A stretch of 64,000 bases of DNA from an uncultured Coriobacteriia bacterium. Its GTDB lineage: Bacteria > Actinomycetota > Coriobacteriia > Anaerosomatales > PHET01. The notes under the pieces were generated by a model that was not told the DNA's origin, did no database searches, and saw only the letters and a program-made list of their open reading frames with translations. Numbering within the stretch: position 1 is the first letter of the stretch; each line of letters opens with the position of its first letter. The DNA is taken from NCBI GenBank assembly GCA_963751505.1, contig CAVVUM010000005.1:5122-69121 (forward strand), read 5' to 3'. Below, piece after piece: positions 7,010 through 47,767 of the stretch. The position numbers and the translations under genes are program-made.

Positions 7010-7054
7010 CTTAACGGGCCTCCGTCCCTATCCTGTTCGTAACTGCTGTTACAA
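7006..7054 (+). promoter_or_regulatory. Sigma70-type promoter with downstream palindromic operator
   Basis: TTGACT (7006-7011), 17-bp spacer, TATCCT (7029-7034); operator TCGTAAC-TGCT-GTTACAA at 7037-7054. Confidence 0.75.
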
Positions 7055-7155
7055 AGCCCTCACTGGTTGCCGCGACGCCCGGACAGCGCCGCGGTTCGGC
7101 GTCTTCAGACGTCGCCGAGAAGGGCGCGACGCGACGGGGTAGGAGGTGTCAGTTC

Positions 7156-8073
7156 GTGGGACTGACGCAACTCAATGTCTGGCTGGACGCGGTGTTCGTG
7201 ACGCTCTGGGTCTTCATCATCCTCGCGCTCTCGGGCCACTTCCTCGGCAACATCCTCACCGGGCGCGTCAAGCGGCGCTTCGGCAAGGAGTGGGCGTGGC
7301 CGCATCACGACAGCCACCCACCCGCGCTGCCCAAGTGGATGCACTTCCAGCACGTCGCCTGCATGATCCTGCTGGCGATCTCGGGACTCTACATCCGGTT
7401 CCCGGGCTTGTTCGGCCTGCCTGACGGGTTCCGCACGCCGATGCGTTGGGTGCACTACTTCGCGATGATCATGGTCACGCTCAACCTCATCTGGCGCCTG
7501 TGGTACGCGTTCTCATCGCGCCAGCGTGACTATCGCGAGTTCGCGGTCACCAAGCGCGACATCACGACCGCGCCCCAGGTCATCCTCTACTACATCTTCG
7601 TCAAGAAGAGCAAGCCGCACCTCGGCAAGTACAACGTCATGCAGAAGGGGACCTACATCGTCTTCGTCCCGCTGCTGATCGTGCAGGCCTTCACCGGGTT
7701 CGCACTGCTGACCTTCACCATCCCGTACATCAACATGTCGCCACGGGATTTGCTAGTAGGCTGGTGGCTCGGCGTGCTTCTCGGCTCGACCGACCTTGCA
7801 GGATGGTGGGCGCGCACGGCGCATTACATCATCAACTGGCTGTTCATCATCCTGACCACGATCCACATGTACCTGTCCGTGACCGAGGACTTCCCGGCGT
7901 TCCTGGACTTCTTCGGGATGGGTGGGCTCGACAAGCGCAGCGGCCACGATGATGGGCACGACGAGCACTGCAGTCAGAGCCGGCACCGGCGTATGCTTCA
8001 GCCGAGCATGCAGGATGACCGTCAGATAGGAAACGTTGGGTGGGCAACCGCTTCCCATACGCATGCGCGGTGA
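7156..8073 (+). CDS. Di-heme cytochrome b (HyaC/FdnI-like quinone-reactive membrane subunit)
   Basis: Several TM helices with His ligands (WMHFQH, RWVHY, TAHY, TIHMY) and GKYNVMQK. His/Asp-rich tail GHDDGHDEH. True stop probably ~8020. Confidence 0.85.
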   Translation: MGLTQLNVWLDAVFVTLWVFIILALSGHFLGNILTGRVKRRFGKEWAWPHHDSHPPALPKWMHFQHVACMILLAISGLYIRFPGLFGLPDGFRTPMRWVHYFAMIMVTLNLIWRLWYAFSSRQRDYREFAVTKRDITTAPQVILYYIFVKKSKPHLGKYNVMQKGTYIVFVPLLIVQAFTGFALLTFTIPYINMSPRDLLVGWWLGVLLGSTDLAGWWARTAHYIINWLFIILTTIHMYLSVTEDFPAFLDFFGMGGLDKRSGHDDGHDEHCSQSRHRRMLQPSMQDDRQIGNVGWATASHTHAR

Positions 8074-9015
8074 TGTTGATCGCGCTCTCCGCCCCGGCAG
8101 TCGCCGCGGCGGCTGAGTCGTCTTCGACGGCGACCGCGTCTGCCGAGGCGAGCCGCACCTACGACCTCGACTTCACGCTTCCCACGGCCGGCAAGTCGGG
8201 CTGCATGGTGTGCCACGGCGACCCGAACCTCGTGAAGCTCAGCTCCGAGAGCACGTCTTCGATCTTCATCGACCCGGCAGTGCTCGCGAACACCGCTCAC
8301 GCCGACACGGTGTGCACCGGCTGCCACCTCGACTTCGCCTACCAGACGCCCCACCAGAACGTCACAGCCGGCGCCACGTGGGTCGACGTTGCCAAGTCGG
8401 CGTGCAAGAACTGCCACTCCAACGAGTTCACCAAGTCGTCTCCGGGGCGCACTCCCCGTCGGGTGAACCGGGGCAGACGGACGAGGAGATCCAGGCCAAG
8501 CGACTCGCCGAGGGCAAGCCCCCCGTGACACCACTTTGCGGGGATTGCCACGGTTCTCACGAAATCTCCTACATCGACGTAGAACGATGGGAGAATCGGG
8601 GACCGCCGAGGTGCAACAGGCCGCGCAAGACGGTGCAGCTGCGATGCACGGGACCGGCGACGAGATGTGCGGCAGTTGCCACGAGGACCAGACCACGACA
8701 TACGCGGACTACTACCACGGGGCCGCGTACCGCGAGGGAGCGCCGGACGCGCCGGCGTGCTGGGACTGTCACGGAGCGCACGAGATGCTGCCCGCGAGCG
8801 ATCTGAGGTCGCCGGTGAACCCGGCCAACCTCGAGGAGACCTGCGGCAAGTGCCACGACGATCCCAACGAGGACTACGTGGAGTACGCGAAACTCGTTCA
8901 CAGCAAGGAGCAAGTCGAAGAAGAGGTACCGCTCTACACGATTTGGGAGTCGGCCAGAGCCGCCGTCGACGACGCGATCCAGACGGTGGGCTCGTGGTTC
9001 GGGGGCGAAGGGTAG
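8040..9015 (+). CDS. Secreted multiheme cytochrome c, 7 CxxCH motifs (frameshifted)
   Basis: Signal peptide; CMVCH, CTGCH, CKNCH, CGDCH, CGSCH, CWDCH, CGKCH. Confidence 0.88.
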
Positions 9016-9055
9016 CAGGGGGCCTGTGGGCCCCCCGCGGAAGGGGTAGGTAAGG

Positions 9056-10382
9056 ATGGCGCTACGACTACAGAGCACGCACCGGTAGGCTGCTCGCCAT
9101 CGCTCTTGGCGTCGCTGGCGTTCAGCGTCGCGCTGAGCGGCGGCGTCGCATTCGCGCAGGACCAGGAGTTGCAGCTCGACCCGGCGACTTTGCAGCAGCT
9201 GTTCCAGCAGCTGCAGTCCTCGCCGGTCATCGAGCAGACCTGCAGCGGGTGTCACGGCAACATCGCCGACACCGACAACTACTCCTCCGAGATCATCTTC
9301 ACGCACGCGAACCACATCATGCTGCAGTGCTCGTCGTGCCACACGCGCTTCCCGCACCGCCCTGAGGGCACCTCGCGTCCCACGATGAAGGGCTGCTGGG
9401 ACTGCCACGGGCTCACCCACGGTCCGATGGGCGAGCTCGCCACCGGCGAGTGCGAAGACTGCCACAAGACGCCCAAGGAGCGCCTGCGCCCCGCATTCCA
9501 CGGCTACGACTGGGCCGGCAAGCCGCACGTCGCGCCCGCGAAGGAGGCGTTCAACACGCGCTGCGCGATGTGCCACGACCCCGCGTCCTGCAACGACTGC
9601 CACGAGCAGAAGGCGATCGAGTGGACTCCGGACAGCTGGGGCTACGACTCCAACGGCGGCTGCCTCTCGTGCCACGGCAACCCGCTGCTCCAGAAGCAGG
9701 GCCTCGCGGGCGGCAAGTCGTTCCAGGTCAGCGGACTCGAGGAGTCCGTGCACCAGGACCTGACGTGCCAGAAGTGCCACACCGACTTCAACTACGAGGG
9801 CACCCCGGGCGCCACGCCGCTGTGGACGATCAACGCCAGCATCGCGTGCGCCGACTGCCACAAGAGCCCGACACGGGTGACGCCGAGAAGGACAAGAAGC
9901 TCTCCGAGCCGGTCGCGCTCTACAACAAGTCGATCCACGCCACGGCGCTCAAGGACGGCAACACCGACTCGGCGACGTGCGGCTCGTGCCACGGCGGCCA
10001 CTTCATCTACAGCACCGACAACGCGCTCGGCGCCGCGCGCATGCACGGCTCGTCGTACCGGGTCTGCGCACGCTGCAAGCAGCACGGCGACGAGTACGAC
10101 ACCTACGACGACTACTACCACGGCAAGGCCTACAAGGCCGGCGCGCCTGATGCGCCCGCGTGCTGGGAGTGCCACGAGTCCCACGACATCCTGCCCAAGA
10201 GCGACCCCGAGTCGAGCGTGAACGCGGCGAACGTCGGCGAGACCTGCGGCCAGGAAGGCTGCCACAAGGGCTCGAGCGAGGAGTTCGGCACGGAGGCTGC
10301 TGCTCTGATCCACCAGAAGGCACAGGCCCAGCAGGACAACCCGCTCCTGCGCCTCATCGCCAACCTGACCGGCGGCGGCTAG
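9056..10382 (+). CDS. Secreted multiheme cytochrome c: 11 CxxCH, one CxxCK(QH) and one Cx4CH (frameshifted)
   Basis: Signal peptide AFA-Q; CSGCH, CSSCH, CWDCH, CEDCH, CAMCH, CNDCH, CLSCH, CQKCH, CADCH, CGSCH, CARCKQH, CWECH, CGQEGCH. Confidence 0.88.
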
Positions 10383-10418
10383 GCCCGCCACCGCGCGATA
10401 GGAGGCCTGCGGCAGCCC

Positions 10419-12062
10419 ATGCGCCGCATCACCGACAAGCGAACAGTGATCTGGGGGGTGGCCGCGATTATTGCCGCGGCCGCCTTCCTGCTTGCGACCG
10501 CTGTCGCCGGTGACGCCGTGGAGAGCGACCAGCAGACGAGCGCGTCAGCCGAGGCGACGACCGCGCCGGTCATCGACACCGCTGCGCCGATAGAGCCGAC
10601 CCAGTGCGCGCCCTGCCACCTCGACCTCGGCAACGTGACCCAGCCGGGGCTCATCTTCAGCCACGGCAACCACATGCTCGTGAGCTGCGACGGCTGCCAC
10701 GCCCGGATGCCGCACCGCGGCAGCGGGACCGAGACCGTCCCGATGGAGGTCTGCTTCACCTGCCACGGCATCGCGCACGGGCCGCAGGGCGAACTCGCCT
10801 CGAGCGAGTGCCGCGACTGCCACACCAAGTCGTTCGTGCTGCGTCCCAAGACGCACACCGAGGACTGGAAGGCCAAGCCGCACGCGGACAAGGCCAACAA
10901 GACCGGCGTCAACGACTGCATGATGTGTCACGACGCGCCCAAGGACTGCGACGAGTGCCACGAGAAGGAGAACGTGGACGTCGGCAAGATGCCGGATGCG
11001 TACCACTCCCTCGTGCAGCCTCGCGACAAGGGGCCGTCGGTCAAGGTCTACCCGGACGGTCCCGTCTCGATGTCGCAGTGCCAGTACTGCCACCCCGACC
11101 TCGACGAGATCACGCCGGGCCGGCTCATCTTCGCCCACGGCGCGCACCTGCGGGCGCAACTATCGCTGCGAGGCGTGCCACACCGAGTTCGCGCACCAGG
11201 AGAACGGGACGAGCAAGCCCGACATGATGTCGTGCTACCGGTGCCACAGCGTCTACCACAACGGCGGCGGTCAGATCGCCGAGGGGCAGGACTGCTACAA
11301 GTGCCACCCGAAGTCCTTCGAGCTCATGCCCAAGGACCACACGATGCCGTTCATCAAGGGCGAGCACGGCAAGAAGTCGAACGAGGACCCCGCCGTACTG
11401 CGCGATGTGCCACCCGTCCGAGTTCTGCGTCGGCTGCCATCGCGGCGAGAAGGTGAGCCCGAACGCTCCGGGCAAGCCGGTCATCCCCGACGATCACAAG
11501 AAGGCGGCGTGGCGGCACCAGCACGGCGGCCAGTACCTCGCCGGCGAGGGTGCGTGCGGCTCGTGCCACGACGGACCCGTCGTGCAAGCGGTGCCACAAG
11601 ACCGTCATGCCGCACCCCGTCGGCTGGCTCGAAGGACCACTCGCCCGAGCCGGGCACGACGCACCGAGGACTGCAACATCTGCCACACGGACCGCAGTCC
11701 AAGTGCCAGAAGTGCCACCACCAGAACGTGCGCAGCGCGCCGAGCTCATCGAGAAGAACTGCACGCCGTGCCACGACGAGATGAAGCAGAAGCCGGCGAC
11801 CGAGATCAAGAACAAGGGCTTCGCCGAGCACGCCGTGCACTTCGACGTCGCAGAAGAAGAAGGGCAAGCCCTACAAGTGCGACGAGTGCCACGTGGACTT
11901 CGGCACGTCGCGCGGCGGCAAAGGAGCTCGAACTGCAGCAGGGGCACGACCTTCGCTTGTGCTACGACTGCCACGGCGCGCTCGACCCCTTCAACAAGCA
12001 GATCGCCCCGTACAAAGGCGCGGCGCTGTGCGTCCGTTGCCACAAGGACGTCGGACGTCTAG
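10419..12062 (+). CDS. Membrane-anchored or secreted multiheme cytochrome c, ~20 CxxCH motifs (several frameshifts)
   Basis: N-terminal hydrophobic helix; CAPCH, CDGCH, CFTCH, CRDCH, CMMCH, CDECH, CQYCH, CEACH, CYRCH, CYKCH, CAMCH, CVGCH, CGSCH, CKRCH, CNICH, CQKCH, CTPCH, CDECH, CYDCH, CVRCH. Confidence 0.87.
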
Positions 12063-12130
12063 CGGGATCAGCGGCGCGACCATGCGCGCTGACGTCACGA
12101 CGAGAGACACACAGAGGAGTACACACGCGC

Positions 12131-13286
12131 ATGAGTGAGGTTGCGAGCGCCGCCGCGCCGGCTGCAGGCCCTGACAAGAGCAAGTCGCTCGACCGTCTGG
12201 CTCACCGTAGCCATCGCGGCTGCTTGTCAGTTGCGATCCTCGGGTTCGCGGGCTACTTCGCCTACACCGTGTGGACCGAACTACCAGCGGGACCAGCTGA
12301 CCAACGCGCCGATCCGCCTCATCAAGGGCATCGAGGCCGAGGTCCGCAAGACGCCCAACGACGTCATCCTTCGCGTGCGGCTCGGCGAGGCCTACGGCGC
12401 AGCCGGCAAGTACGACCAGGCGGTCGAGCAGTTCAAGCAGGCGCTCAAGATCGACCCGAAGCACGTCGGTGCGTATCTGGACCTCGGCATGGTGGCCGTG
12501 CTCACCGAGAACGACGCGGCCGCCGAGCGGTACTTCAAGAAGGTCATCGAGCTCACCGAGACCGCGCAGATTCGCGAACGTGGACCAGCGTCGCGAGAAC
12601 GCCTTCTACAACCTGGGCTGCTCAAGCTCAAGCAGAAGAAGTACGAGGAGGCGGCCGGCTACTTCAAGGAGGCGCTGCGCATCCGCAAGGACGCCTCGGA
12701 CACCTACGTCTAGTCTCGCGCGTGCGCTGAGGGGCATGGGGGACACGGACGGCGGCGATCGAGAACCTCGAGATCGCGCTCGCCTTCGACCCGGGCTTCG
12801 CCGAGGCGCACTACACGCTCGGCGAGATCTACCGCGAGAAGAAGGACGACGTCAACGCGTCGTACCACTTCCACCAGGCCGCTCGGCTGCGCGCCGGATG
12901 CCGAGCCGCCCCAAGAGGCGCTCGCCGGCTTCGGCACCGCCTCGGACTGGGTCGCGAAGGCGGAGAAGGCTCAGGCAGCGGGGACCGTACCGAGCGCAAT
13001 CACGGCGTACTGGTGGCGCGCAACCTCGATCCGAAGACCTCGCTGCGGCCAAGCTGCACGGCGCGATACTCGACCGAGCGCCGAGAGCTCGAAGGATGCG
13101 ATCGAGGTCTACCTCGAGGCGCTGAAGCGCTGGCGCCGAAGGACAAGGCCGTCCTCGAGGCCCTGAAGCGCTCGAGCGCGAGAACCCGAAGATCGCCATC
13201 GGTGCGTACAAGGCGAAGCTCAAGAAGGACCCGAGCAACTCGATCGTAGAAGGCGCGACTCGACAGGCTGCGACCAAGCCAAGTAG
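12131..13286 (+). CDS. Membrane-anchored tetratricopeptide-repeat protein (frameshifted)
   Basis: TM segment, then TPRs: LGEAYGAAGKYDQAVEQFKQALKIDP, AYLDLG, AFYNLG, YEEAAGYFKEALRI. Confidence 0.82.
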
Positions 13287-13293
13287 CGTCATC

Positions 13294-14861
13294 ATGCGAA
13301 CCGGCACCGCGGAGGATCAGTTGACCAGAGCACAGAAGCGCAAGATCGTCATCGTCGTCATCCTCGTACTGCTGCTCGCGCTGCTTGGCGCGCTACTACC
13401 TGTACTACCGCAGCACGCAGAAGCTCGCGCTCGACATCTCGCCGGTCGACAACGAGTTCGTCGAGCCGCCGCAGTTCCTCTACTCGTTCAACGGCGCCAG
13501 ACACCGGCACGCGCATGCAGCGGCCGGTCGGCGTGCTCGTCGACGGGAGCACGGTGTACGTCGTCGACTCGCGGCGCCACGTGATCGACGTCTTCGACCT
13601 CAGCGGGGCTACAGGCCGCAGCTGTCGGCGCGTCAGAGACGGTCGACGCCGCTCTACATCGCGAAGAACCCCAAGGACGAGCAACATCTACGTCACCGAC
13701 CGCGCACCCGCTCGATCCACATCTTCACGCCCGAGGGCAAGTACCTCGAGCGACTTCGACCCCAAGCTGCCCAAGAACCAGCTCCCCGACTTCGACACCA
13801 AGCGGCGTGCAGTGGGCGCCGGTGGCGCTCGCGTTCGCGCCGGACGGCACGATGTACGTGACCGAGATCCTCAACGGCCATCGCCTGCTCATCTTCGACC
13901 CGAACGGCAAGTTCAAGAAGTCGGTCGGCACGTCGGGCATCGGTCGAACGAGGCCGAGCAAGGCGCCGGAGGTCTTCCAGTTCCCGAACGGGCTCGCGGT
14001 CCGGCAAGGAGGTCTACGTCGCCGACAGCAACAACCGGCGCGTCCAGGTCTTCGACAAGGACGGCGAGTTCAAGCGGATCATCGTCACCCAGGGCCTGCC
14101 GCGGGCATCGCGTTCCTCGGCACGCTTCCCGCAGGACGATGCCACGACGCCCGCAGCGCTTCGTCGTCGTCGACACGCTCGCGCACGACGGCACGATCTG
14201 GAGCGCCGAGGGCGAGAAGCTCGCTCAGCTTCGGCAGCAGGGCGTGCTCGAAGGCCAGTTCAGCTACCCGAACGGCGTCGTCGGTCGGGGCGCAGCAACA
14301 AGATCTTCATCACCGACACGGCCAACGGTCGCGTCCAGGTCTGGGGCTGGCCCGAGCAGGTCTCGCCGGTCCCGATCGCCGCGCATCCCGCAGAACTGGG
14401 TCTTGTGTCTGCTGCCGCTGCTGCTGCTGCCGCTGCTGCTCCTGCTTCCGCAAGCAAGCGCTTCTTCGCCACGGCGGACTTCGTGCTCGAGATGGTCGAC
14501 GCCGGCGAGGTCGACCTGATGCCGCAGCGCGGGCGCAAGTGGTACGTGACCGCCGAAGACTACGAGCAGCTCAAGGACATCGAGCAGGGCGACATCAAGC
14601 TGGCCGAGTTGCTGAACGAGGCCGAGCTACTCCGAGTCCGATGCGCGCGCGCTCAGGAGCGCCTCGAGATCGGCGAGCGCTGACTCGATCATCCTGTCGA
14701 TCGCGAAGCGTCGAAGGTGTTCTGCACGAGGACGAGGAGCTGCGCCGCCTCGCGAAGGTCCTGGAGATCGACGTCGTCGACCGCGTCGAGTACATCGAGC
14801 GGTTCACCCGTCGCGACACGACGTCACGAGCCGCCCGCCGGACGCACCGCGAGAGCAGTAG
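13294..14861 (+). CDS. NHL-repeat beta-propeller membrane protein with second TM and C-terminal cytoplasmic domain (heavily frameshifted; end approximate)
   Basis: PVGVLVDGSTVYVVDS, FQFPNGLAV, VYVADSNNRRVQVF, GQFSYPNG, IFITDTANGRVQVW; poly-Leu TM near 14410-14450. Confidence 0.8.
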
Positions 14862-14894
14862 TGCGGAACGCCTGACGAATCTGGCCGAAAATGC

Positions 14895-14948
14895 TTGACG
14901 AACCTGTGTGCGGCACATAGAGTGTGCACGTTGTAACTTCTGTTACAA
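14895..14948 (+). promoter_or_regulatory. Sigma70-type promoter of the hydrogenase operon with perfect palindromic operator
   Basis: TTGACG (14895-14900), 17-bp spacer, TAGAGT (14918-14923); operator TTGTAAC-TTCT-GTTACAA at 14931-14948. Confidence 0.8.
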
Positions 14949-15244
14949 ACCTGACCAGCATCGTGCAATTGGTACCCACGAAGGAGGGTACTGGGAATAG
15001 ACCACCGGGTTGGAGCCGGCACGAAGACCCGACTGGTCAGTTGACCCTCACCCGATCCAGCACTATCCGTAGCTCCGGTCAGGGTCCTGCCAGCGACTTC
15101 ATTCGAGACGCCGTCTCCACCCGGTCTCCCGCACTGCGGGCCAGAGGAGGTGGCGTTTCTTCATATACCGCAGCTGGGAGAGAGAAGTTTGAGCACGTGG
15201 GCTTACCTGTACTGTTCATCGAGCCAAGTGAAGGAGGAGAGAGT

Positions 15245-16596
15245 ATGGCCATAACCAGGCGACAGTTCGTCACCCGTTGGGTGCCCTTGCTGCCGCCGTT
15301 GGCATGAGCCAGGCCGAGGTCTCGAAGATCACCGAGGCCTTCGCTGGCAACGGCACGACTGCTCGGCGGCACGCTGCGGCAAGCCGAAGGTCGTATGGGT
15401 CCACGGCGCTGAGTGCACCGGTTGTTCGACGTCACTTCTGGGCCTCTTTGAGGACGTCGGACCGGCAAGGCGATTCGAGGGGTACGGCGATCACCACGTC
15501 GGCTGCAGCGCTGCGGTCTCGCGGCGTGAGTCATCCGACGGCGCTCGACGCAGCGGCTGCACCATCGGACTCACGCTCTCGAGTGGCGACTCGTCAACGC
15601 CGATCGACGGCCAACGCGTGAACATCGCGGACGTCGTTGTCGACTTCATCGACCTCAGTATCACGAGACCGTCATGGGCATGGGCGGCGACCTCGCGGCC
15701 CAGTGGCTGGAGGACTTCAGCGACATGCGCCGACACGACACCGAGCCGTTCGTGCTCGTCGTCGAGGGCGCGGTCCAGGACAAGACGCACGGCGGCGCGT
15801 GGAACGACGACCAGCGACGCGCAGCGTGCCGTGGTGCTCGATCGGCATGTCGGCGACGACGGCGGACCGCTCGAGCACGACATGCCCGAGACGTCGTCGC
15901 GACCTCGCACAAGGCCAACTGCGTGGCGATCATCCCGATCGGCCAGTGCGCCACGCTTCGGCGGCTATCCCGGCTGCAAGCCGCCGATCAGCGCCACGCG
16001 CCGACGGGCTGGCGGCTTCAACCCGACGCAGTCGCAGACCGGCGCCATGGGCATCTACGACTACCTGCTCGCGCACGGCGCACTGCCGGCGCGCGCCGAC
16101 AAGGTCATCAACGTTCCGGGCTGCCCGACCAACCCGTGGTGGTTCGTCCTGACGGTCGTCGCTGGCTCGTCGACCTGTCGACCCGTCCGCTGGTCCGCTC
16201 GGCGACGTGCTCGGATCCTGCACGGCTCGCAGGCATCGACCTCGACCGCCGCCGACTGCGACCGCCGCCTCAAGGCCGTCTACCCGACTCCGATCCACAG
16301 CCCGTACTGCCCGCGCTACCGCGACTACGTCAAGGGCGTGTTCGCCGCGCAAGCCCGGCGATCCCGGCTGCCTGCAGAAGCATCGGCTGCAAGGGCCCGT
16401 CGACCAACTCGCTGTGCGGCACGCACGGCTGGAACAGCCAGCAGCCGCAGAACAGCCGCGATGTCAGCCGGCAGGCGTCTCCGCTCAGCCTGCAACGGCA
16501 ACAAGCCGGCGGCCACTGCACGCCGGCTGGCCATCCCTGCATGGCCTGCACCGAGAAGGGCTATCCGGACGCTTCGTCCCGTTCGTGGAGCGCTAG
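15245..16596 (+). CDS. [NiFe] hydrogenase small subunit with Tat signal (frameshifted)
   Basis: MAITRRQFV twin-arginine signal; VVWVHGAECTGC, VLVVEGAV, GQCA.FGG, INVPGCP, IHSPYCPRY, GCKGP, HCT.AGHPCMACTE. No C-terminal TM anchor. Confidence 0.9.
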
Positions 16597-16620
16597 AGAA
16601 GGAAAGGAGGGAAAAACTAG

Positions 16621-18657
16621 ATGGCTATACGATCTTACCGGTACTCGGCAACGATCACGAAGTCGACCCGATCTCACGTATCGAGGGTCACCTCGGCGTC
16701 AAGGTCGACGTCGACGCGGCGGCAACATCACCGAGGCCGACGCCCACGGTAACCTGTGGCGTGGCTTCGAGAACTTCCTGCTCGGCCGCGACGCCAACGA
16801 CGCGATCACGTTCACGCAGCGCATCTGCGGCGTTGCCCGGTTCCGCACGGCATGACGTCGACGTACGCGGTTGAGGCGTGCTCGGCTACAGCCAGCGGCC
16901 ACATCACGTTCTGCACGACGGACCGCCGGCGCCTACGGCGTTCCGCCGAAGGCGGTCCTCATCCGCAACCTGGTGCTCGGCGTCCGAGTTCCTGATGTCG
17001 AGCATCACGCACTTCTATCACCTGGCTGCGCCGAGCTACGTCCAGGGCCCGGCTATCCCGCCGTGGACCCCGTACTTCGCCGACAGCTACTACACCCGCT
17101 GCTTCGTCGAGCCCGCGGTCGGCGCTGACGGCACGGCGCCGCTGCCGGCGTCGTTCCGGACGCCGATCTGGCTCCGATGCACCTCTGGGCCGCGGTCATC
17201 ATCAGTACGTCAAGGCTCTCCGCATCCGCCGCCTCACCTTCGAGGCCGGCGCGCTGTTCGCGGGCCGTATGCCGATGACCTCGTGCTTCGTCGCCGGCGG
17301 CGTCACCCGACAGGCGCACGAGGACCTCGACGGAAGTGCAACAAGTTCCACGACGATCATACGCGAGATCGGCCACTTCGTCATCCAGGAGTACGTGCCG
17401 ATCGTCCTGGCGCTCGGGCGTCCTGTACCCGGACTTCGACAACCTGCAACAACGCGGTCCGACAGCTCGACGGCTCACGATCGCGCACGGCTGCGGCTAT
17501 GGCTGCGGCGCCGGCCTCGGCAACTTCCTCGCGTGGGGCGCGTTCCCGAGATCGACGGCGACGCTCCCGCACCAACGCGCGCTGCGCTTCGCGAGCGGCA
17601 TCTTCAGGACGTCACGGCTCGCGGGCCCGAGCAACTTCACCGTCGTCAACAAGGCCGAGGTCTACGGCAAGTTCCTCGAGCGGCCGCTGCCATCTCGTTC
17701 CGGCTGAACCTGCACCGAGGACATCGCGCACTCCCGCTACGCCGATCACGACGTTCGACGACACCGGCGACGGCTACATCGCCGTCGACGGCACAGCACG
17801 CGCTATCCGGGCGACGTCTCCCGCACCGAAGCCGACGCGCTGACGACGGGTACACGTACATGAAGGCTCCGCGCTGGAGCGGCAACGCCATGGAGGTCGG
17901 CCCGCTGGCGCGCTGGTCGTCGACCGGCCACTATCCCGTCGACGGCACGCACGCTCGCCGACGGTACGTCCCAGGCTACACCGGACATCGTACCTCAACG
18001 GCGGCGCGACGCTCGACATCGCGCGTCCTCGCGGACCACGACTCGTCCACGGCACGATCGTCACACTCCGGGCCACGCCGCCTCTCGGCGTACCGGCGAG
18101 CGGCGCTACATCGGTGCATCGCCGTGCATCACGAGCCTGGACTCATCGCCATCAAGGGCGGCCTGTCCACGATGGATCGCCTCCGCGCTCGTGCGCTCGA
18201 GTCCTCGTCCTCGTCCAGCGGATGATCGGTGCGTTCGACCAAGGCCGACCGGACCTGCGCAACAGCTCAGTTCGCCGACACGGCTGGGTCGACCAGCTCA
18301 AGGCCGCGGCTGGGCGCGGCCTACATACATCGAACAAGCCGATCCCGCCGGTCAGCATCACAGGGCTGGGGTGCACCGAGGCTCCGCGTGGTGCGCTCAT
18401 GCACCATGTGCACCACAACACGGCAAGATCACGGCGTACCAGTGCATCGTGCCGACGACGTGGAACGGCTCGCCGAAGGACGCCGCTGGGACGCGGCGCC
18501 ATCGAGCAGGCCATCATCGTGCCCCGTTCGCACGACGGCACCACTCCAGACGCATCCGTGCGCAGGCGGCTGCGCCAGCACCGCATCGGTCGGTGGCGTC
18601 GAGGCCCTGCGTATCGCCCAGTCCTTCGACCCGTGCATCGCATGCGCGGTACACTAG
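16621..18657 (+). CDS. [NiFe] hydrogenase large subunit, group 1a-like (frameshifted)
   Basis: DPISRIEGH, RGFE.FL.GRD, L1 motif QRICGV(C)PVPHG across an indel, HFYHL, YMKAPR, EVGPLAR, EAPRGALMH, YQCIVPTTWN, L2 motif SFDPCIACAVH*. Confidence 0.92.
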
Positions 18658-18675: not shown

Positions 18676-19932
18676 TTGAAGAGACTCTACTCTCGTTCTT
18701 CTCGCTGTTCGCGCTGTCCTCCTCTTCGGCGGCGTGGCGTACGCGAACTTCGGTCCGCACGGCGGATACTCGACGACACCGACTCTTGCGCCGGTTGTCA
18801 CCGGGCTCACACGTCGTTCTCGACGGTGACGTGGACGACGGCACGGCAACGAGCACAGCGCCGTTGCTCTGCTCGTCGCTCGGCGGCGACGATGAGGAGT
18901 TCTGCTACGCGTGCCACGGTGACGCCGCACCTGGCGCGTCGACGAACGTCTGAGCGGCGTCGTTCGACGCCGGCCCCTCGGGCGACTCGGTCACGGCATC
19001 TGCGCGCAACGGCGGCGTCATGAAGGCCTACCGACGGACTCGACGTTCAACGCGGCCCTCAACGGCGGCGGCTTCGTTCATGCTCCGACTCGTAAACTGG
19101 GAGACCAGGCGACTGCGCTTCGCGCCGGTCACGTCGATGCACAACATGGATGCCGGTCGGCGATCTGTGGGGCGACGGTATGCGGTTCCGACCCCGACCA
19201 TGAACCTGACCTGCACCGACTGCCACGACCCGCACGGCTCCTCGAACTACCGCCTGCTCAAGGACGAGGTCAACGGTATTCCGTAGGTGGCTACACCCGG
19301 GCGACGTGCCGGAACGGTCGTCTCCTCGGCCGAGACCGGCTACACGACGGCCGGGCGGCGGCTGGCTCAAGCACGAGGCTGGCCACCCAGATGCAACTAC
19401 GTGCCGAACTACACCGTCGGCAGCTCGCAGATCCGTGCTGGCAGCGCTCGGCAAGACCATCTCGACGTGGTGCGCGGCATGCCACCAGGAGTACGACAAC
19501 CGACAAGCGCCTACAGCTACGGTGACTACGAGGGCGGCTGACCGGTACGGTCGGTCGCGACCCGTCATCGCCACCCGGTCAACATCACGCTCGTTCAGCG
19601 GCGAGGACGTCTTGCAGATCGATGCGCCGGCTACGATTCCTCGATCGAGATGATACCGCTCGAAGTCAAGCCGAACGATCCGGCGTTCGTCGGAATCAAA
19701 TTGGCTGCCTCACTTGCCACTACGCTCATGGCTCCAGTGCGATATGACCGGTTGGTCGGCTGCCCAGCTGGAGAAGAACGACGATAACACGTGGATTCCT
19801 GTCCGCGACGACGGATCGCTGGCGTCAGCCTGACAAGAACGACGACCCTCAGGCCGCTGGTCTCCGAGCGGCACCAGCTCGCTCCTTCGCGCCGACAACC
19901 GCGGCGTGTGCGAACGCTGCCACGACAAGTAG
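18676..19932 (+). CDS. Secreted hexaheme cytochrome c with OmcS-like motif spacing (frameshifted)
   Basis: GGAGG RBS and signal peptide; GPHGGY..DTDSCAGCHRAH, FCYACH, CTDCHDPHG, WCAACH, RHPVN, GCLTCHYAHG, VCERCHDK*. Confidence 0.82.
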
Positions 19933-38226: not shown

Positions 38227-39399
38227 GTGGAGAGGGCGAACGTGACCGAGAACCTGAAGGGTGGCACTCGCAGGCGACTCGTTCTGACGATGGGCGGCGT
38301 GGGACTGGCCGTCGGCCTCGTGTTCCCGCTCGCAGCGCGGCTGCTCGTCGAGCCTCGCAGCACCGGAGCGCTCGCGCTCTTCTGGGGGCTCTGCGTGCTC
38401 GCCGGGGTGGGCGTGGGAGTAGGCTGTGCTCTGCTTGCCGAGAACGTCGGCGCCGGGATGTTCCGATCGGTCCTGCTCGAGGCGCGGGAGCGCTACGGCA
38501 TGCAGGTTGAGACCGAGGGGGACGGAGATGCCCTGCAGCTCGAGGTCTTGCGCCAGTTCGCCGAGGTAAGCGAGGTCCTGCGCCAGGCGGGCTCGGTCAA
38601 CCGCGATCTGCGCGCTCTGACAGCACAGGTACTCGCCGCCACAGAGCAGCAGGCATCGGGCGCGGCGCAGCAGGCCGCAGCGGTCACGCAGACCTCGGCC
38701 ACCGTCGAGGAGCTCGCGCAGACGTCGCGGCAGATCGCCGACAACTCGAAGGCGGTGGCGCTCACGGCCGAGCACACGCTCGCCAGCGCAGAAGAGGGCA
38801 TGCAGGCGGTCATCGACACCGCCTCCGGCATCGATGAGATAGGCGCGAGCACCGAGCTCGCCTCCGATCGCATCCTCCAGCTCGGCGAACGCAGCCAGGA
38901 TATCGGTCGCGTGCTGGTCATCATCGACGACATCGCCGAGCAGACCAAGATCCTGGCCCTCAACGCGGCGATAGAGGCCGCGCGGGCAGGAGATGCTGGA
39001 CGAGGATTCGCAGTCGTTGCCGAGGAGATCCGCAAGCTGGCCGACTCGGTGACCGAGTCGACCTCGGAGATCGGCAAGGTCGTGAGAGAGATTCAGACCA
39101 GCGCAAGCTCCCTCGTTATGTCGACCGAGCGCGCCCGCGCAAAGGTCGATGAGGGCCGTGGGCTTGCACGTCGCACCGCCGACGCACTCGACCGGATCGT
39201 GAGCCAGGTCGAAGATACCACCGATGCCGCCAAGCAGATATCGATAGCGACGCAACAGCAACGCACCGCCTCTGAGCAGGTCGTTCTCTCGATGCGCGAG
39301 ATGACGCAGACGTCGCTATCAGGTGCAGACGCATCGCGCCAAATCCAGACGGCCATCGCCGAGGTCGACCGGCTCGCAGACGCCGTGCTCGTGCGCTGA
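38227..39399 (+). CDS. Methyl-accepting chemotaxis protein
   Basis: Two N-terminal TMs; [37 protein letters not shown]. Confidence 0.93.
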
Positions 39400-39574
39400 T
39401 CGCTGCGACAGGCGGTCCTGCGTTCGTGCAGGACGCGCGCGCGACTCGTCGAACTCCCCAAGTGAACGGCGTCCTTCTGTTGTGGGGGCGTTAAGATTCT
39501 TATATTGTTCTCGTGGCGGTGCCTGGCCGCCGATTGTGTCGTGGGTGGGCGACTCGAAGCAAGGAGAGATGCAA

Positions 39575-41814
39575 ATGGCGAAGATCTCCCTGGCCGGATT
39601 CAAAGATCCGGTCCGGCGGCCGCGGTACATCATCTGGGCGCTCGTTGCGGTCCTCGTGGTGGCCGGGGTCATGGTCCCGGTCCTGGGAATCACCTCGACC
39701 AGGTGGTTCTGCGCCGAGGGCTGCCACAAGGTGCAGGACGACACGATCCTCGCGTACGAGGCATCCACCCACTCCGAGATCAGCTGCATGGCGTGCCACA
39801 TGCCGGTGAACGCCAACCCCGTCGTCTTCCTGCTTCACAAGGCCGAGGCGCTCGGCGAACTGTATCTGACCGTTCGGGACGACTTCGAGTTGCCCCTGAA
39901 CGCCGAGAGCGAAGTCGCTCTCACGATGGCAACGAAGCAGTGCACCCAGTGTCACAACATGCCGAACCGCATCGTTACGCCTAGCACCAGGCATCAAGAT
40001 AGAGCACGAGCCGCATGCCGAGATCAACGCCGCGTGCCCTGTGTGCCACAACCGTGTCGCCCACAACGAGAACTTCGAGCTGACACTCACCGATCCTCAA
40101 ACCGGAGAGCCCAACCAGAAGCACGCGAACTTCATGACGATGACCGCGTGCTACCGCTGCCACGGTCTCGAGAAGGGCGCGGCCGCTCCTGGACGCTGCC
40201 CGGCCTGCCACACTTCGGACTTCACGCTGAAGCCGGACAATCACAACGAGGCTACCTTCAAGCGCCAGGGTCACGCAGAGATGGCCAAGGAGGCGCAGGC
40301 CGAGGTCGCGAAGGCGAAGGCCGAGGCGGCAAGCCCCGAGGGGGAGGCCGAGACCTCCGAGCAGGAGGGTGAGGCCGAGAAGCAGAACGAGACCCCCAAG
40401 GAGGAGAAGCAGTCCGAGGAGACCTCCTTCCTCGGCGTCGAGAAGGCCTACGCATCCGGGGGCGGGGAGGAGTCTGCACCGTCCACCAAAGAGGATGTGC
40501 CTGAGGTCATCGCTGCTCAGCGAAGCCACGGTGCCGATGACTCCGAGTCGATCGGCGAGGAGTTGCCGCCGGTGGACACGATCTACTACTGCGGCACCTG
40601 CCACCTCGAGACCTTCTGCACGAACTGTCACGGCATGGAGATGCCGCACCCCGCGGAGTTCAAGGAGCCGGCGAAGCCCACCGATCCTCAGGGCCACCCG
40701 GTCATCTCGAAGGCCAAGCCCAAGAAGTGCGTCATGTGCCACGGCGAGAACGAGAAGACGCACTTCTGCGACGAGTGCCACCACGGCACCCAGGCCGGCG
40801 GATGGAAGTACGATCCGAAGGTCGCCGTGGACTGCCAAGCAGCACCCGCAGGCCGTCGCAGCGGGCGGCGTGAAGGCGTGCACCGAGAAGTGCCATACCG
40901 CCAAGTTCTGCGTGACGTGCCACACCCAAGGCAAGGTCGTACCGACCTCGCACAAGCAGAAGAACTGGACCAAGCCGAAGCCTCCGGGAGCCCTGACGAT
41001 CTACGGCAAGCAGCCCGCGAAGGTCAGCGCGAAGCACGCGCTCGATGCGCAGACCTCGATCGAGAGCTGTGCCGTGTGCCACGGCGAGGGCGGTCCGAAC
41101 GCGAAGTTCTGCAAGAGCTGTCACAAGCTCGAGATGCCGCACTCGGCAGAGTTCAAGAAGCAGCACGTGAGCAGCAAGAAGAACAAGAAGCAGTGCCAGA
41201 ACTGCCACCTCTTCAAGGAAGTGTGCAGCAACTGCCACCACATCGACTCGTCGCTGACGAAGCCTTGGATCAAGGTCCACGGTGGGTCCGTGAACAAGAA
41301 CGGCGCGGCGGGTTGCGTCGAGAAGTGCCACACGAAGGACGACTGCGTGAAGTGCCACACGAGCCGCAAGGTCGTGCCGGACTCCCACAAGGCGAAGAAC
41401 TTCGTGAGGAACTACTCGAGCAAGGACGCCAAGCACGCCGAGCTTTACAAGAAGGACGGCGACACCTGCACCTACTGCCACAAGGGCGCGGCTGCCGAGT
41501 TGCCGAACTCGAAGTTCTGCAAGGGCTGCCACAAGCTCGAGATGCCGCACAAGATCGATGACGGCAGCAAGGAGAAGTTCCCGCACAAGGAAGGCTTCGA
41601 GAAGAAGACCTACAAGAAGGCCCAGTGCGCGAACTGCCACAAGACCTCGTTCTGCGACAGCTGCCACCACGAGGCGTCCGTTGCCGGCAAGCCGTGGGTC
41701 CGCTACCACCCGAACGTGGTCAAGAAGGACGGAGCCGATCCGTGCTTCGAGTGCCACGAGGAGACGTACTGCTCGAACTGCCACGTCAACCTGGCGAAGC
41801 GGGGGTTGCAGTAG
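39575..41814 (+). CDS. Membrane-anchored NapC/NirT-like multiheme cytochrome c, ~24 heme motifs (two frameshifts)
   Basis: TM helix, then TSTRWFCAEGCHKV..STHSEISCMACH; 21 CxxCH and 3 CxxxCH counted by eye. Confidence 0.86.
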
Positions 41815-41837
41815 GCAGGAACTGCTCAGAGAACACG

Positions 41838-41867
41838 GCGAGGGCCCGGCGCATGCCGGGCCCTCGC
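41838..41867 (+). terminator. Hairpin after the 24-heme cytochrome gene
   Basis: GCGAGGGCCCGGC-GCAT-GCCGGGCCCTCGC perfect inverted repeat. Confidence 0.65.
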
Positions 41868-41956
41868 TCGTTGCCCGCACGTTGGTGCGCGGCGTTCGTC
41901 CCTTGGTGAGCCGGGGCTTGGCGCGCCTAGTGGGGCGTGCTAGCATAGCGCCTCGC

Positions 41957-43659: not shown

Positions 43660-43720
43660 CTCCAGGACCGGCTACTGCCATACTACAGGGTAGTGTCGAA
43701 CTCCAGAGGGGGCCTTTCGG

Positions 43721-44523
43721 TTGCAGTCCATCATCAGCTTCGTGTCCGACTTCGGCTTGGAAGACACGTGGGTCGGCGTCTGTCATGCGGTCATACACCG
43801 CGCGTGCCCGCAAGCTCACGTCGTGGACCTTGGCCATCAGATTCCCCCGTTCGACATCCGTAAGGGCGCCGCGACGGCCGCATCCGGCGTGTACCAGCTG
43901 CCCGAGGCGATTCACCTCGTGGTCGTCGACCCAGGGGTCGGAGGTGGTCGTCGGGACCTGTGTCTGGTGACCGCGGGGGGTACAAAGCTCGTGGGCCCGG
44001 ACAACGGCGTGCTTATTCCCGCAGCCTGGCGCGCGGGCGGTATGACCGAGGCGTACGCGATCGACCCGGCGAAGATCGACTTCCGAGGTCCGCTCGCCAC
44101 GTTCCACGCGCGCGATGTGTTGGCTCCCGCTGCCGCCGCGCTCGCCTGCGGGGTCGAGCCAAGTCGCTCGGCGATGCGGTCGCACTTGAGTCGCTGGCGC
44201 CGGCGCCTTTCGGCCAGTGCGGCCGCGACGGCGACTACGTGCACGGCGAGGTGCTGGAGGCCGACCGGTTCGGCTCCCTGAGGTTCAACATCCCTGCCGA
44301 GGACCTCGAGGCACTGGGCCTGCGGGCAGGCACGCTCGAGCTCTCGATCGGCCACAACCGAATCACCGCACCATTCGGGAGAACGTTCTCAGACGTAGGT
44401 GAAGGTGAGCCCGTCGTTCTCGTTGATTCGTCGGGCTGGCTCACGCTGTCGGTCAACACCGGCGATGCAGCCGATCGCTACGGCGTCGAACCCGGGACGA
44501 ACCTGCGCATTCGCTCCCTCTGA
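43721..44523 (+). CDS. SAM hydroxide adenosyltransferase (DUF62, fluorinase/chlorinase superfamily; frameshift near 44170)
   Basis: SDFG, VDLGHQIPPFD, VVVDPGVG, GPDNG, TFHARDV, DRFG, TFSDV. Confidence 0.9.
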
Positions 44524-44631
44524 CGCCTGCTCACGACCCAGCAGCTCACCTTGTCTCGCGCTCCCTCGGCCGCGTGTCAGAGCCGGGGGCTACGCTTCAG
44601 GCGCAGCGTGGGCAAGGGAAAGGCGGGAGTC

Positions 44632-45630
44632 GTGCGAGCCACTTTCATCAATGAGCTGACCGAAGGCTGTCGGGTGGACGGGACCTACTTCCTGCGCGCG
44701 CGTGACCTACGCGCGGCACGCAACGGAGACGCCTATCTCGCGATGGAGCTTTCGGACAAGACCGGCGCGATCCAGGCCGTCCTCTTCCGCCCCGCGCCGG
44801 CCGCAACGGCGATCCCGACCGGTGCGGCTGTCGATGTGACAGGTACGATCACCAGCTATCGTGGAGTCCGGCGGGTGTCCGTCGACGGTCTGCTGCCCGC
44901 TCGTCAGTGGGACCCCGCCAGCCTCGTGGGCGAGTGCACCCGGTCCTCCGACGAGTTGACAGCCGAGCTGCGCCAGATCTGGCGCAGCGTCACGCACCCC
45001 GGTCTTCGCCGGACCCTCAGGCAGGTCTTCTCCGAGAGGTCTTTCTCGCCAGCTTCCGCACCTGTCCCGCTTCGCAGACCTACCATCACGCCTACATCGG
45101 CGGTCTGCTCGAGCACACGGTCGCGGTCGCATCGCTGTGTGACGAACTCGCCCCGCGCTATGACGGTGTCGATGCACCCCTGCTGGTCACCGCTGCGCTG
45201 CTTCACGACATCGGCAAGGTAGACGAGCTCACCTACGACACGGGGATCGGCTACACGGACGAGGGGCGGCTCACCGGTCACGTCGTGCTGGGCGCGATGC
45301 GCGTCCGAGAGGCGGCACGCCGGGCCAGACTCGACCGCCAGACGCTGATGAAGCTCGAGCATGCGATCCTGTCCCACCACGGCGAGCTCGAGTGGGGTTC
45401 GCCGAAGCGGCCCTCGACACTCGAGGCGCTCATCTTGCACCACGTCGACAATCTCGATGCGAAGGCGGCAGGATTCGCGTCGCTGCTGAAGGGGGCCAGC
45501 TCGATAGAGGAGAGCTGGACGGATGCGGCGAACCTGTTCCGTCGTCCGCTCTACTCCCCGCGGGCGATCGAAGACGATCGCCCGCATCGGCCCGCCGAGG
45601 ACGAGTCAGTACTTCAGCATCTCCGCCTAG
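44632..45630 (+). CDS. YhaM/Cbf1-like 3'-5' exoribonuclease (OB plus HD domains; frameshift near 45040)
   Basis: LSDKTG, HHAYIGGLLEHT, LLHDIGK, GHVVLG, ILSHHG..EWGSP, HHVDNLDAK. Confidence 0.88.
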
Positions 45631-45713
45631 TCGCTGCGGAGCCGAGGATGCGACTAGAATCGAGCGTACGCGCCTTGTGGCGCCTGACTGACGCCGGTTC
45701 GCGAGGAGGAATC

Positions 45714-46517
45714 ATGAGTGGGTTGCCGCAGGTCGAGATCGGCGTGTTCGGCGGCAGCGGTTTCTACTAGCTGCTCGACAACCCGAAGGAGTACCGCGTC
45801 AACACCCCGTTCGGCGCGCCTTCCTCGCCGCTCATGGTCGGCGAGATCGGCGGCCGGTCGGTCGCGTTCCTGCCGCGGCATGGCAAGGACCACCAGCTGC
45901 CGCCGCACATGATCAACTTCCGCGCGAACGTCTGGGCGATGAAGGAGCTCGGCGTGAGCCGGATCATCGGACCCAACGCGTGCGGGTCGCTGCAGACGCA
46001 CGTCAAGCCTGGCGACTTCGTCATCTGCGACCAGTTCGTCGACCGGACCTGGGGCCGCAAGGACACCTTCTACGACGGGCCGATCACCACGCACGTCTCC
46101 TCGGCGGACCCCTACTGCCCGACGATGCGGCAGGTCGCGATCGACGAAGGCGAGGACGCTCGGCATCACCGTTCACCCGACCGGGACGGTGGTGGTCATC
46201 CAGGGGCCGCGCTTCTCGACCCGCGCCGAGTCGCAAGTGGTTCGCCTCGCAGGGCTGGGAGGTCATCAACATGACCCAGTATCCCGGAGTGCTACCTCGC
46301 CCGCGAACTCGAGATCTGCTACTGCAACATCTCGCTCGATCACCGACTATGACGCGGGCACCGAGGACGTTCGCCCCGGTCACCAACGAAGAGGTCATGC
46401 GCGTCTTCAACGAGAACAACAGCAAGGTCAAAGACCTCATCTACCGCGATGATTCCGGCGCTGCCGGCCGAGCGCGCGTGCGTGTGCGCGACGGCGCTGG
46501 AGGGAGCGGCGTTCTAG
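45714..46517 (+). CDS. mtnP: S-methyl-5'-thioadenosine/purine nucleoside phosphorylase (in-frame TAG at 45768 plus frameshifts, probably assembly errors)
   Basis: IGVFGGSG, TPFG.PS, FLPRHG, NFRANVWA, DQFVDRT, QGPRFSTRAES, TDYDAG. Confidence 0.85.
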
Positions 46518-46550
46518 ACCCGATTCGCGCGACGGGGCAGGTCGCGACCG

Positions 46551-47698
46551 ATGTTCGACGTCCCGTCATTCAAGCTCGGACGCTTCTTCGGCATACCGGT
46601 CGAGGTCAACGCGACGTGGCTGGTCATATTCGGCCTGGTGGCGTTCGCTCTCGCGACGAACTACTTCCCGAGGTGGTGCGCAGCCGCAGGTGCGAGGTCG
46701 GCCTCGATGTCGCGTACTACGCCGTCTCGCGTCACGGCGCTCCTGTTCTTCGCCTCGATCGTTGCGCACGAGCTCTGCCACTCGCTCGTCGTGCGCGGCG
46801 GGCGGCGGTCACGTCGAGCAAGATCACGCTGTTCATCTTCGGCGGCGTCGCGCAGATGGACGAGGAGCCGCAGGACGCCCGGGTCGCGAGTTCGTGATGG
46901 CGGTCGCCGGGCCGGCGATGAGCCTGGTGCTGGCGGCGTCTGTCCTACGTCGCGCTTCCGTGCTCGCCGCTCGAGCGGCGCTGCATGGTGGATCTGGGCG
47001 CCCGCTGCAGTACCTCGGCGGTCATCAATCTGCGTTTGTCGGCGTGTTCAACCTGCTGCCCGGGTTTCCCGCTGGACGGCGGCCGCGTACTGCGCGCGAT
47101 CCTGTGGGCTGATCACCGACGACCATGCTGAAGGCCACGCGCTGGGCGGTGCGCGTCCGGCCAGTTCATCGGCTGGTCGATGGTCGTTGCTCGCGGTTCT
47201 CGGCGTGCTGCGAGGGAGCGCTCGATCTCATCTGGTTCGGCCTGATCGGGTGGTTCATCGCGTCACTCGCGGCGGCAGGCCTATCGGCAGCAACTCGTGA
47301 AGTCGAGCTCGCGTGGCTCACGGTGGCTCGATCATGTCGCGAGTCTCCCGATTGCGGTGCACGGCGAGGACTCCGCTCGAGCCACTCGTCAACGAGCACT
47401 TGCTCGGGAGGCCGCCACAGCCGCTATCCGGTCGTCTACGACGGGCGATCGTCGGGCTGGTGACCCTGCCGGCGTCAAGGGCGTCGACGGGCCGGACTGG
47501 CCGTTCGTACGGACGATCGACGTGACCGATCGCGACATCGCAGGTCGCTGAGGTCGCCGACCGATGCGCCCGTGGAATCGCTCGCTGCCGCGCTCGCCGG
47601 GGATCGACCGGGCGCACTGCTCGTGGTCGGCGATGGCAGCGCTCGTCGGCATCGTGACCCGGGCCGATGTCATCGCGGCGCTCGAGCGCTCCTCCTAG
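46551..47698 (+). CDS. M50 site-2 metalloprotease with C-terminal CBS pair (frameshifted)
   Basis: HELCHS, LFIFGGVA, AVAGP, FNLLPGFPLDGGR, HSRYPVV, VGIVTRADVI. Confidence 0.85.
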
Positions 47699-47738
47699 CG
47701 CCGTTCGGCGCGCATTACTGAACGCTCAGCGACGCGGC

Positions 47739-47767
47739 TTGTCCGAGTTTGTAACAGTTGTTACGAT
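47739..47767 (+). promoter_or_regulatory. rex promoter overlapped by palindromic operator
   Basis: TTGTCC (47739-47744), 17-bp spacer, TACGAT (47762-47767); operator TTGTAAC-AGTT-GTTACGA at 47749-47766. Confidence 0.78.

Follow-up and report, generated by a model that had tools for sequence, protein, structure and literature searches.

In a 64,000-nucleotide stretch of DNA from an uncultured Coriobacteriia bacterium of the order Anaerosomatales (contig CAVVUM010000005.1, positions 5,122 to 69,121; hereafter the window, with positions counted from its first letter), the 18-bp palindrome TTGTAAC-N4-GTTACAA is likely the operator of RexA, a Rex-type regulator encoded in the same window at 47811-48476. 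The palindrome recurs across the order upstream of rexA and of energy genes, and it is lost, save for one remnant, from the genomes in which rexA has been deleted. An initial annotation, made from the sequence alone, had pointed to three copies, and all three are present as described, namely TCGTAAC-TGCT-GTTACAA at 7037..7054 with 1 mismatch, the perfect TTGTAAC-TTCT-GTTACAA at 14931..14948 with 0 mismatches, and TTGTAAC-AGTT-GTTACGA at 47749..47766 with 1 mismatch, none of them being assigned a strand. These are the only 18-mers in the window that match at two mismatches or fewer; its G+C content is 67.6%, and 100 dinucleotide shuffles of it gave a mean of 0.00 matches and a largest count of 0. 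Each site also occupies the repressor position that had been proposed, overlapping or closely following a sigma-70-type promoter. The first begins 3 bases past the -10 of the promoter of the cytochrome b/multihaem operon (TTGACT-17-TATCCT, 7006..7034, forward strand) and spans its predicted start site, while the second begins 8 bases past the -10 of the hydrogenase promoter (TTGACG-17-TAGAGT, 14895..14923, forward strand), at the predicted +1. These two promoters came from a promoter scan and were the sole promoter-like sites in 6700-15400, against a shuffle mean of 0.5. The third site lies in front of rex, as had been stated, and overlaps the spacer and the -10 of the rex promoter (47739..47767, forward strand; TTGTCC at 47739-47744, spacer of 17, TACGAT at 47762-47767, with a TG extension), which with 8/12 matches falls below the threshold of the scan tool and was read by eye only. 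Similar promoter arrangements were seen upstream of rex orthologs, and the TTGAC..TAT arrangement also precedes 14 aligned cytochrome b ortholog sites.

In the source assembly (G000, 1.28 Mb, 59% complete) we found five matches at two mismatches or fewer, all with a 4-bp spacer; spacers of 3, 5 and 6 gave no match at that threshold, and the reversed-genome control at spacer 4 gave 0. A weight matrix built from 103 related sites, a training set that included the hydrogenase and nuoA sites of this very genome, returned four strong sites with scores of 28.6-32.5, at rex, the hydrogenase, cytochrome b and nuoA (the fourth, at C12:138285); the next score was 14.1 and nothing in the reversed genome rose above 12. 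The sites keep the 18-bp 7-4-7 palindrome with TTG..CAA ends in repressor position that is common to Rex operators, but not the consensus: relative to the canonical half-site TTGTGAA, G is replaced by A at position 5 in 99% and A by C at position 7 in 96% of the 103 training sites. Each window site carries at least 4 mismatches to TTGTGAA-N4-TTCACAA, and the canonical box at two mismatches or fewer was found at 0 sites in G000.

The motif scan was extended to relatives, and the regulon was counted in the 20 genomes with complete site lists, of 41 searched, all 114 sites being examined. The sites recur upstream of redox and energy genes and of rex. The proposal had been made to depend on conservation of the motif upstream of orthologs, and such conservation is what we found, as 102/114 sites lie upstream of nine gene classes. 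A site precedes nuoA and rexA in 17/20 genomes each, the window-type hydrogenase in 16/20, the acetyl-CoA synthetase gene (acs) in 15/20, cytochrome b in 14/20 and the formate dehydrogenase gene (fdh) in 11/20, while a site at a second nuoA, that of another nuo operon, occurs in 6/20, a site at a tetratricopeptide repeat (TPR) gene in 3/20 and one at tupA in 1/20. The other 12 sites fall outside those classes, are mostly low-scoring, and 5 of them lie within genes. The regulon is thus wider than was first proposed, nuo, fdh and acs being the additions. When relatives were aligned on the sites, the palindrome was kept, the flanks were not conserved and the distance to the promoter varied: the box lies just past the -10 at cytochrome b and up to about 15 bases past it at the hydrogenase and fdh, and it covers the -35 at nuoA and the -10 at rex. 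Since the flanks are unconserved and the promoter shifts relative to the box, we regard the palindrome as a repressor operator and not as a promoter element. The main nuo operon is without nuoEFG, and its NuoI carries a fused FAD/NAD(P) domain (a GltD-like oxidoreductase with Fer4_20, Pyr_redox_2 and Fer4; G000 C12:132659-133871; L429:12558-14696); through this fusion the regulon is connected to the pyridine nucleotide pool, and complex I may have in it an alternative NAD(P)H module. A looser pattern counted over 100 genomes was not above its control, and the canonical box gave low counts in 28/41 genomes, at unrelated genes in the 12 loci looked at.

Several further features were noticed around these promoters. 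In the window's family, the nuoA promoters of L068, L081, L088, L091 and L075 carry a lone TTGTAAC-like half-site about 20-22 bases upstream of the operator, and in G037, G040 and G386 a second full nuoA site lies close to the start codon. The acs promoters (L082, L089, L310, L313 and others) have a conserved GGGAAGGGAAA element as their -35 region, and their leaders hold conserved CCGTCCACCGAC-like motifs; both are retained also at promoters that have lost the operator. The hydrogenase and fdh genes are preceded by long leaders, 250-480 bases in length, that are conserved as well. These conserved elements may reflect a second regulator or an RNA structure. In at least four genomes a TGTGA-N6-TCACA-like site (L077:2469, corresponding to G000 C12:126868; L219, L222, L223), likely a Crp-family site, lies past the end of the nuo operon and ahead of a small gene that precedes a pilB-like ATPase. 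Near-canonical TTGTGAA..TTCAC boxes were seen upstream of cytochrome or TPR/NHL clusters (L264:8425 in G015, L225:1501 in G027), and these are possibly targets of other Rex proteins of the order, RexB or RexC, or of Crp.

The tie between the box and rexA was first apparent from position. Of the 41 genomes searched, 40 carry 1-3 Rex genes, which are of three types. RexA, the window's type, has a QIRRD helix and the C-terminal HNTDP..HTLYY and lies between an M50 peptidase gene and tatA-greA; RexB is of the canonical type, with a QVRKD helix; RexC has lost GXGXXG, which is replaced by G[ST]AxM, and has a different C-terminus, the second Rex of G000 (L001, C10:66298) being of this type. RexB and RexC genes bracket a second multihaem cytochrome cluster in four genomes (L234, L244, L246, L249). 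A 4-bp-spacer site at two mismatches or fewer was present at 54/80 rexA loci, and the canonical box at 0/80. Among 114 non-redundant RexA genes, 103 have the box upstream, in the 4-bp form in 76 and with a 5-bp spacer in 27, which suggests that RexA tolerates either spacer. No box was found upstream of RexB (0/17), RexC (0/18) or canonical actinobacterial Rex (0/12), together 0/47, and 4/12 of the last have the canonical box instead. The lineage-specific Rex box with autoregulation that the initial annotation had suggested is supported by these counts. The box likewise stands at the promoters of RexA-like genes from other classes of the phylum (L190, L192-L195, L197, L198, L203-L208, L210 and L213, among others), while in a sister group that shares a proline characteristic of RexA (see below) it was seen in 1/12. 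Operators with the 5-bp spacer occur at a subset of the rex promoters of L135-L189, at L199 and L213, and at nuoA of G386, G388, G389 and G040; they are perfect in L213 and at the second nuoA site of G386, and in rex promoters with this form the -35/-10 spacer is also longer, 18. All 114 RexA were grouped by FastTree with a support of 0.86. A quick IQ-TREE, which took 99/173 rows (among them 18 of the 92 remaining RexA, drawn at random, and 22 from other classes), did not recover one RexA clade (2 changes), and supported the RexA of the order (99), RexC (100) and canonical Rex with RexB (100).

Gene loss provided a second tie. The gene rexA is present in 93/99 other genomes of the order, and these 93 hold 500 sites as compared to 96 for the reversed pattern; 87/93 exceed their own control and none has zero. 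Four genomes, G088, G041, G160 and G128, were counted in phylum tallies only. The six genomes without rexA are G036, G016, G344, G368, G386 and G388. In G036 (one contig), G016 and G344, which belong to three families, the genes that normally flank rexA lie side by side and rexA itself is deleted, and the site counts of these genomes are 0, 3 and 0 as compared to 0, 4 and 1 in the controls. No site was found at the retained nuoA, acs and cytochrome b promoters of these three genomes, save a 3-mismatch remnant at nuoA of G016, while the congeners G389 and G013 retain both rexA and the nuoA site. In the other three genomes the absence of rexA is an assembly gap, because greA is also missing in G368 and G386 and the contig of G388 stops after greA; all three keep nuoA sites, and G368 and G386 also acs sites. 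In 20 genomes of the same class outside the order no Rex was found, and they gave 44 sites as compared to 111 in the control.

The protein itself belongs firmly to the Rex family. The intact G007 ortholog, at L024:1015-1656, passes the cut-offs of 6 NCBIfam Rex models and has the winged helix (PF06971) and Rossmann (PF02629) architecture; all 8/8 of its PDB matches are Rex, with an E-value of 5e-48 to Thermotoga Rex 5zz5, and the top Foldseek matches of the RexA model are all Rex as well. In the monomer model the pLDDT (predicted local distance difference test) score is below 50 at residues 193-214, including the C-terminal helix 196-205, where the model is not reliable enough to bear on NADH contacts, and a homolog search with the C-terminal region gave 664 matches. 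Across the 114 RexA, G90, G92, G95 and A97 are conserved at 100%, Y101 and D116 at 99% and D193 at 96%, so that the GXGXXG loop, the ribose-binding Asp and the switch Ala, Tyr and Asp are in place and the NAD(H) pocket is largely intact. The helix AQIRRDL is present in the window as it had been read, and the base-reading arginine pair of helix 3, R49 and R50, is conserved at 100%. Residues that separate RexA from canonical actinobacterial Rex and RexB include G9, V10, R50, H190 and P194.

We propose that a RexA dimer on the box would block RNA polymerase at its own promoter and also at the cytochrome b/multihaem, hydrogenase, formate dehydrogenase, complex I and acetyl-CoA synthetase promoters, and that it would let go once NADH rises relative to NAD+. 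One switch would in this way scale the chain from H2 or formate via multihaem cytochromes and cytochrome b to quinone, and it would also scale the complex I whose NuoI fusion touches the pyridine nucleotide pool. From the sequence evidence, RexA very probably binds the box as a dimer and occludes the polymerase, and the position of the sites suggests that it does so as a repressor. Given binding, its release by NADH is reasonably probable by analogy with other Rex proteins, and the explanation as a whole, from binding through repression to release by NADH, is one that we favour modestly. Two points favour it, namely the conservation of the P-loop, Tyr101 and Asp193 and the repression of Caldicellulosiruptor hydrogenases by a Rex that NADH releases.

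A number of observations weigh against this explanation, most of all against its last step. Pro194 is invariant in 114/114 RexA and, as proline is without a backbone NH, release by NADH is the least secure step. At the sequence level Pro194 aligns with Ile192 of Thermotoga Rex. In that protein the carboxamide of NADH is held by Ile190 O and Ile192 N, which has been described as a mode shared by Rex structures and as key to sensing (PMC6125430). Arg16 of the Thermus switch is Asn, Gly or Ser in RexA, though Thermotoga Rex is likewise without that Arg, and it is not obvious logic for a cell to induce electron-input enzymes when NADH is already high. Of the initial annotation, the multihaem and hydrogenase operons are supported as targets, while their control by NADH is doubtful. 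A comparison of the residues of the recognition helix had been suggested as a check. In the DNA complex of Streptococcus agalactiae Rex, Arg50 and Arg51 read G5 and G7 of the canonical operator (PMC8376106). In the variant sites the base read by the second arginine is A in 99%, and both arginines are unchanged; the helix hence does not explain the changed specificity. Bacillus and Streptococcus Rex helices, which we take to be of the RRD type, bind the canonical box. Other points concern the sites. The box is missing at 11/114 RexA genes, and single sites are lost from genomes that keep rexA, namely G015 (rex, cytochrome b), G013 (rex, second nuoA), G389 (cytochrome b, acs), G000 (acs) and also G025, so that absence at one promoter is weak evidence. 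The three rexA losses are few, and counts from kin are not independent; G016 keeps its nuoA remnant despite the deletion, and there were few targets left to lose, as G036, G016 and G344 are also without a close fdh ortholog and G036 and G016 without the window-type hydrogenase. Genomes outside the order are AT-richer and their genome-wide counts are near control, for which reason only the rex-promoter site is supported there. In one such genome of another class, G119, candidate sites (L403-L406) were noticed before an ATP synthase operon, an H+-pyrophosphatase/pyridine nucleotide-disulphide oxidoreductase pair, an RsbRD_N gene and a gene for a C_GCAxxG_C_C protein, the counts in these AT-richer genomes being near control. 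Finally, the window rex is frameshifted, its fragments aligning with the intact ortholog over residues 1-212 in three frames. Dense frameshifts also run through housekeeping genes of the window (clpC, radA, MTAP and others) and point to an unpolished long-read assembly; because these genes are broken alike, assembly error is probably the cause.

The doubts about the switch could be met if RexA binds and represses as proposed while NADH releases it weakly or not at all and another signal sets its occupancy, be it the NAD+ level, NADP(H), ADP-ribose, AMP/ADP or NADH as a co-repressor, so that donor-oxidising enzymes would be made when the cell is short of reductant. The invariant proline speaks for such a rewired switch, the lost contact being to a backbone N that is described as used in common by Rex structures and key to sensing (PMC6125430), as do the His in place of a conserved basic residue four places before it and a regulon made of H2, formate and acetate input genes. 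On the other hand, the conservation of the P-loop, of Tyr101 and Asp193 and of Asp116 at the adenosine ribose matches that in canonical Rex, the other backbone contact, through the carbonyl O at the Ile190 position, could still form, and the Rex of Caldicellulosiruptor is released by NADH and represses hydrogenases all the same (PMC6391272). We treat this as a tentative alternative. A broader and equally speculative idea is that RexA might form a separate Rex subfamily of deep-branching anaerobic Actinomycetota in which outputs and input have both changed. The new operator would then perhaps be read with unchanged arginines, while another nucleotide state might be sensed, or NADH answered in the opposite sense, and RexA could conceivably be the master switch for the flow of electrons from H2/formate to cytochromes, for complex I and for acetate activation.

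A different protein on the box is far less probable. If a Crp/Fnr-family or other dimeric regulator bound it, rexA would be merely one target; the TGTGA-N6-TCACA spacing of Crp/Fnr sites does equal that of the TGTAA-N6-TTACA core, the family was present in 5/5 genomes searched, and the RexA helix gives no reason for the changed bases. The sites nevertheless do not track Crp/Fnr genes: G036 keeps both ortholog types (61-65% identity to the G007/G009 copies) and G016 keeps one (53-56%), both without the regulon sites, and none of the Crp/Fnr genes among 15 loci scored lies near a box, the best score being 1.8 as compared to at least 20.8 for training sites. The box was lost in three separate families exactly where rexA was deleted and it follows rexA into other classes; a factor co-lost with rexA three times is conceivable, and we consider this explanation improbable. 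For RexB or the degenerate RexC as the binder it may be said that G000 encodes RexC and that many relatives have 2-3 Rex genes. Against it, G007 and G010 have RexA as their single Rex match and carry 7 and 8 sites, G036 has RexB only and 0 sites, no box lies upstream of these genes (0/35) and RexC has lost GXGXXG. The Rex content and site counts of G007, G010 and G036 contradict this assignment and exclude RexB and RexC as a needed binder, which makes it very improbable. The least credible reading takes the palindromes for elements of the promoter or for AT-rich words that arose by chance. The right half does run into the -10 at rex (an extended TGnTACGAT) and provides the -35 at nuoA (TTTACA/TTGCAA), but the hydrogenase, fdh, cytochrome b and acs genes have a separate -35/-10 upstream of the entire palindrome, at a variable distance, both halves are conserved, and shuffles and reversed controls of the window and G000 gave none, so that the separate promoters and the controls contradict it. 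The LexA SOS box shares the inner AAC-N4-GTT; as the four strong G000 sites and the 102/114 sites of relatives precede energy genes or rex, and no repair gene is among the assigned classes, it was rejected.

The genes behind the three window operators, all on the forward strand, map mostly to two or three frames, being broken by frameshifts in this assembly. The first operator precedes a di-haem cytochrome b gene (cytochrome b561, PF01292; 7156..8073; 3' end frameshifted; 82% identity to the G007 ortholog over residues 1-257) and three frameshifted multihaem c-type cytochrome genes (8040..12055, ends approximate) whose intact orthologs have 7, 11-12 and 19-20 CxxCH motifs. Genes for a TPR protein and an NHL beta-propeller protein follow (12135..14814, ends approximate), without an operator of their own here. 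Behind the second operator are the small subunit (15245..16596, frameshifted) and the large subunit (16621..18657, frameshifted, ending in DPCIACAVH) of a twin-arginine [NiFe] hydrogenase, with PF14720 / PF00374 matches, and a frameshifted six-haem cytochrome c gene (18676..19932), for which phmmer against PDB gave 0 matches. The hydrogenase (15245-18657) is divergent, with long insertions, and is closest to NiFeSe-family profiles but has Cys (DPCIACAVH); it matches the class-wide hydrogenase at about 26-38% only. The hydrogenase and formate dehydrogenase operons each end in a six-haem cytochrome gene and are without their own cytochrome b. The third operator precedes rexA (47811..48476, over three frames, end approximate), which has the QIRRD helix and HNTDP..HTLYY and lies in the conserved gene order MTAP - M50 peptidase - rexA - tatA - greA. 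Two further cytochrome loci are without an operator. One, at 39300-41900 of the window, is a multihaem region that weakly resembles the 20-haem protein; the other, at G000 C13:51242-52073 (L463), is a second paralog of cytochrome b that stands alone.

RexA has much in common with the canonical Rex/ROP proteins of Streptomyces, Bacillus, Staphylococcus, Streptococcus, Thermus and Thermotoga, including the winged-helix and Rossmann domains and an 18-bp 7-4-7 palindrome with TTG..CAA ends, while it differs in the half-site TTGTAAC, in the 5-bp spacer at 27/114 rex promoters, in the Pro at the Ile192/Phe189 position and in its targets, which are respiratory input enzymes and acs and not fermentation genes. 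The Rex regulon of Desulfovibrio is probably the nearest physiological analogue; there, Rex was reportedly found by Christensen et al. in 2015 to repress the respiratory chain in an anaerobe that oxidises H2/formate, and to respond to NADH, though with a GTGAA-type box and sulfate-reduction targets, which differ from those found here. Autoregulation and nuo among the targets are likewise common to canonical Rex and RexA (PMC6125430, PMC8376106), and in other organisms, too, Rex acts on nuo, [NiFe] hydrogenase and rex (PMC6125430, PMC6391272). A variant box, ATTGTTA-N6-TAACAAT, is known for Thermoanaerobacter and Thermoanaerobacterium Rex, again a lineage-specific change at half-site position 5 with hydrogenase operons in the regulon (PMC5886521); position 5 is T there and A here, the helix is QIRQD (structure 3wg9) as against QIRRD, and position 7 is C here. 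The Rex of Caldicellulosiruptor bescii has binding sites ahead of its own gene and of [NiFe] hydrogenase genes, as predicted here; most of its sites overlap or follow promoter elements, and NADH disrupts binding (PMC6391272, PMC8579813). That organism, however, is an H2-evolving fermenter with a near-canonical box, in contrast to the twin-arginine hydrogenase, formate dehydrogenase, multihaem cytochromes and complex I seen here. The description of Anaerosomatales has one Rex-type gene, within a cytochrome cluster, and its available text mentions no operator (PMC9686372); by context this gene is likely RexB or RexC. Our literature search returned no report of the box or of a Coriobacteriia Rex regulon; the Ravcheev et al. 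2012 survey and RegPrecise were outside that search and may list a related motif. Lineage-specific Rex boxes were already known, and it is well supported that what is new here is a variant operator whose energy regulon spans the order.

None of these sites would be picked up with standard Rex matrices. RexA also bears on two open points, namely how specificity may shift while the base-reading arginines are kept and what becomes of the NADH switch after loss of a backbone contact. The order has two cultured members, which use H2 or formate for growth together with sulfur compounds or Fe(III) (PMC9686372), and the co-regulation of cytochrome b, the multihaem chain, hydrogenase, formate dehydrogenase, complex I and acs supports reading them as one electron path. 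The result is a first regulon for a widespread and mostly uncultured order, in which the box, the regulon and the link to rexA together predict that hydrogen-, formate- and acetate-linked energy genes are likely tied to the redox state of the cell.

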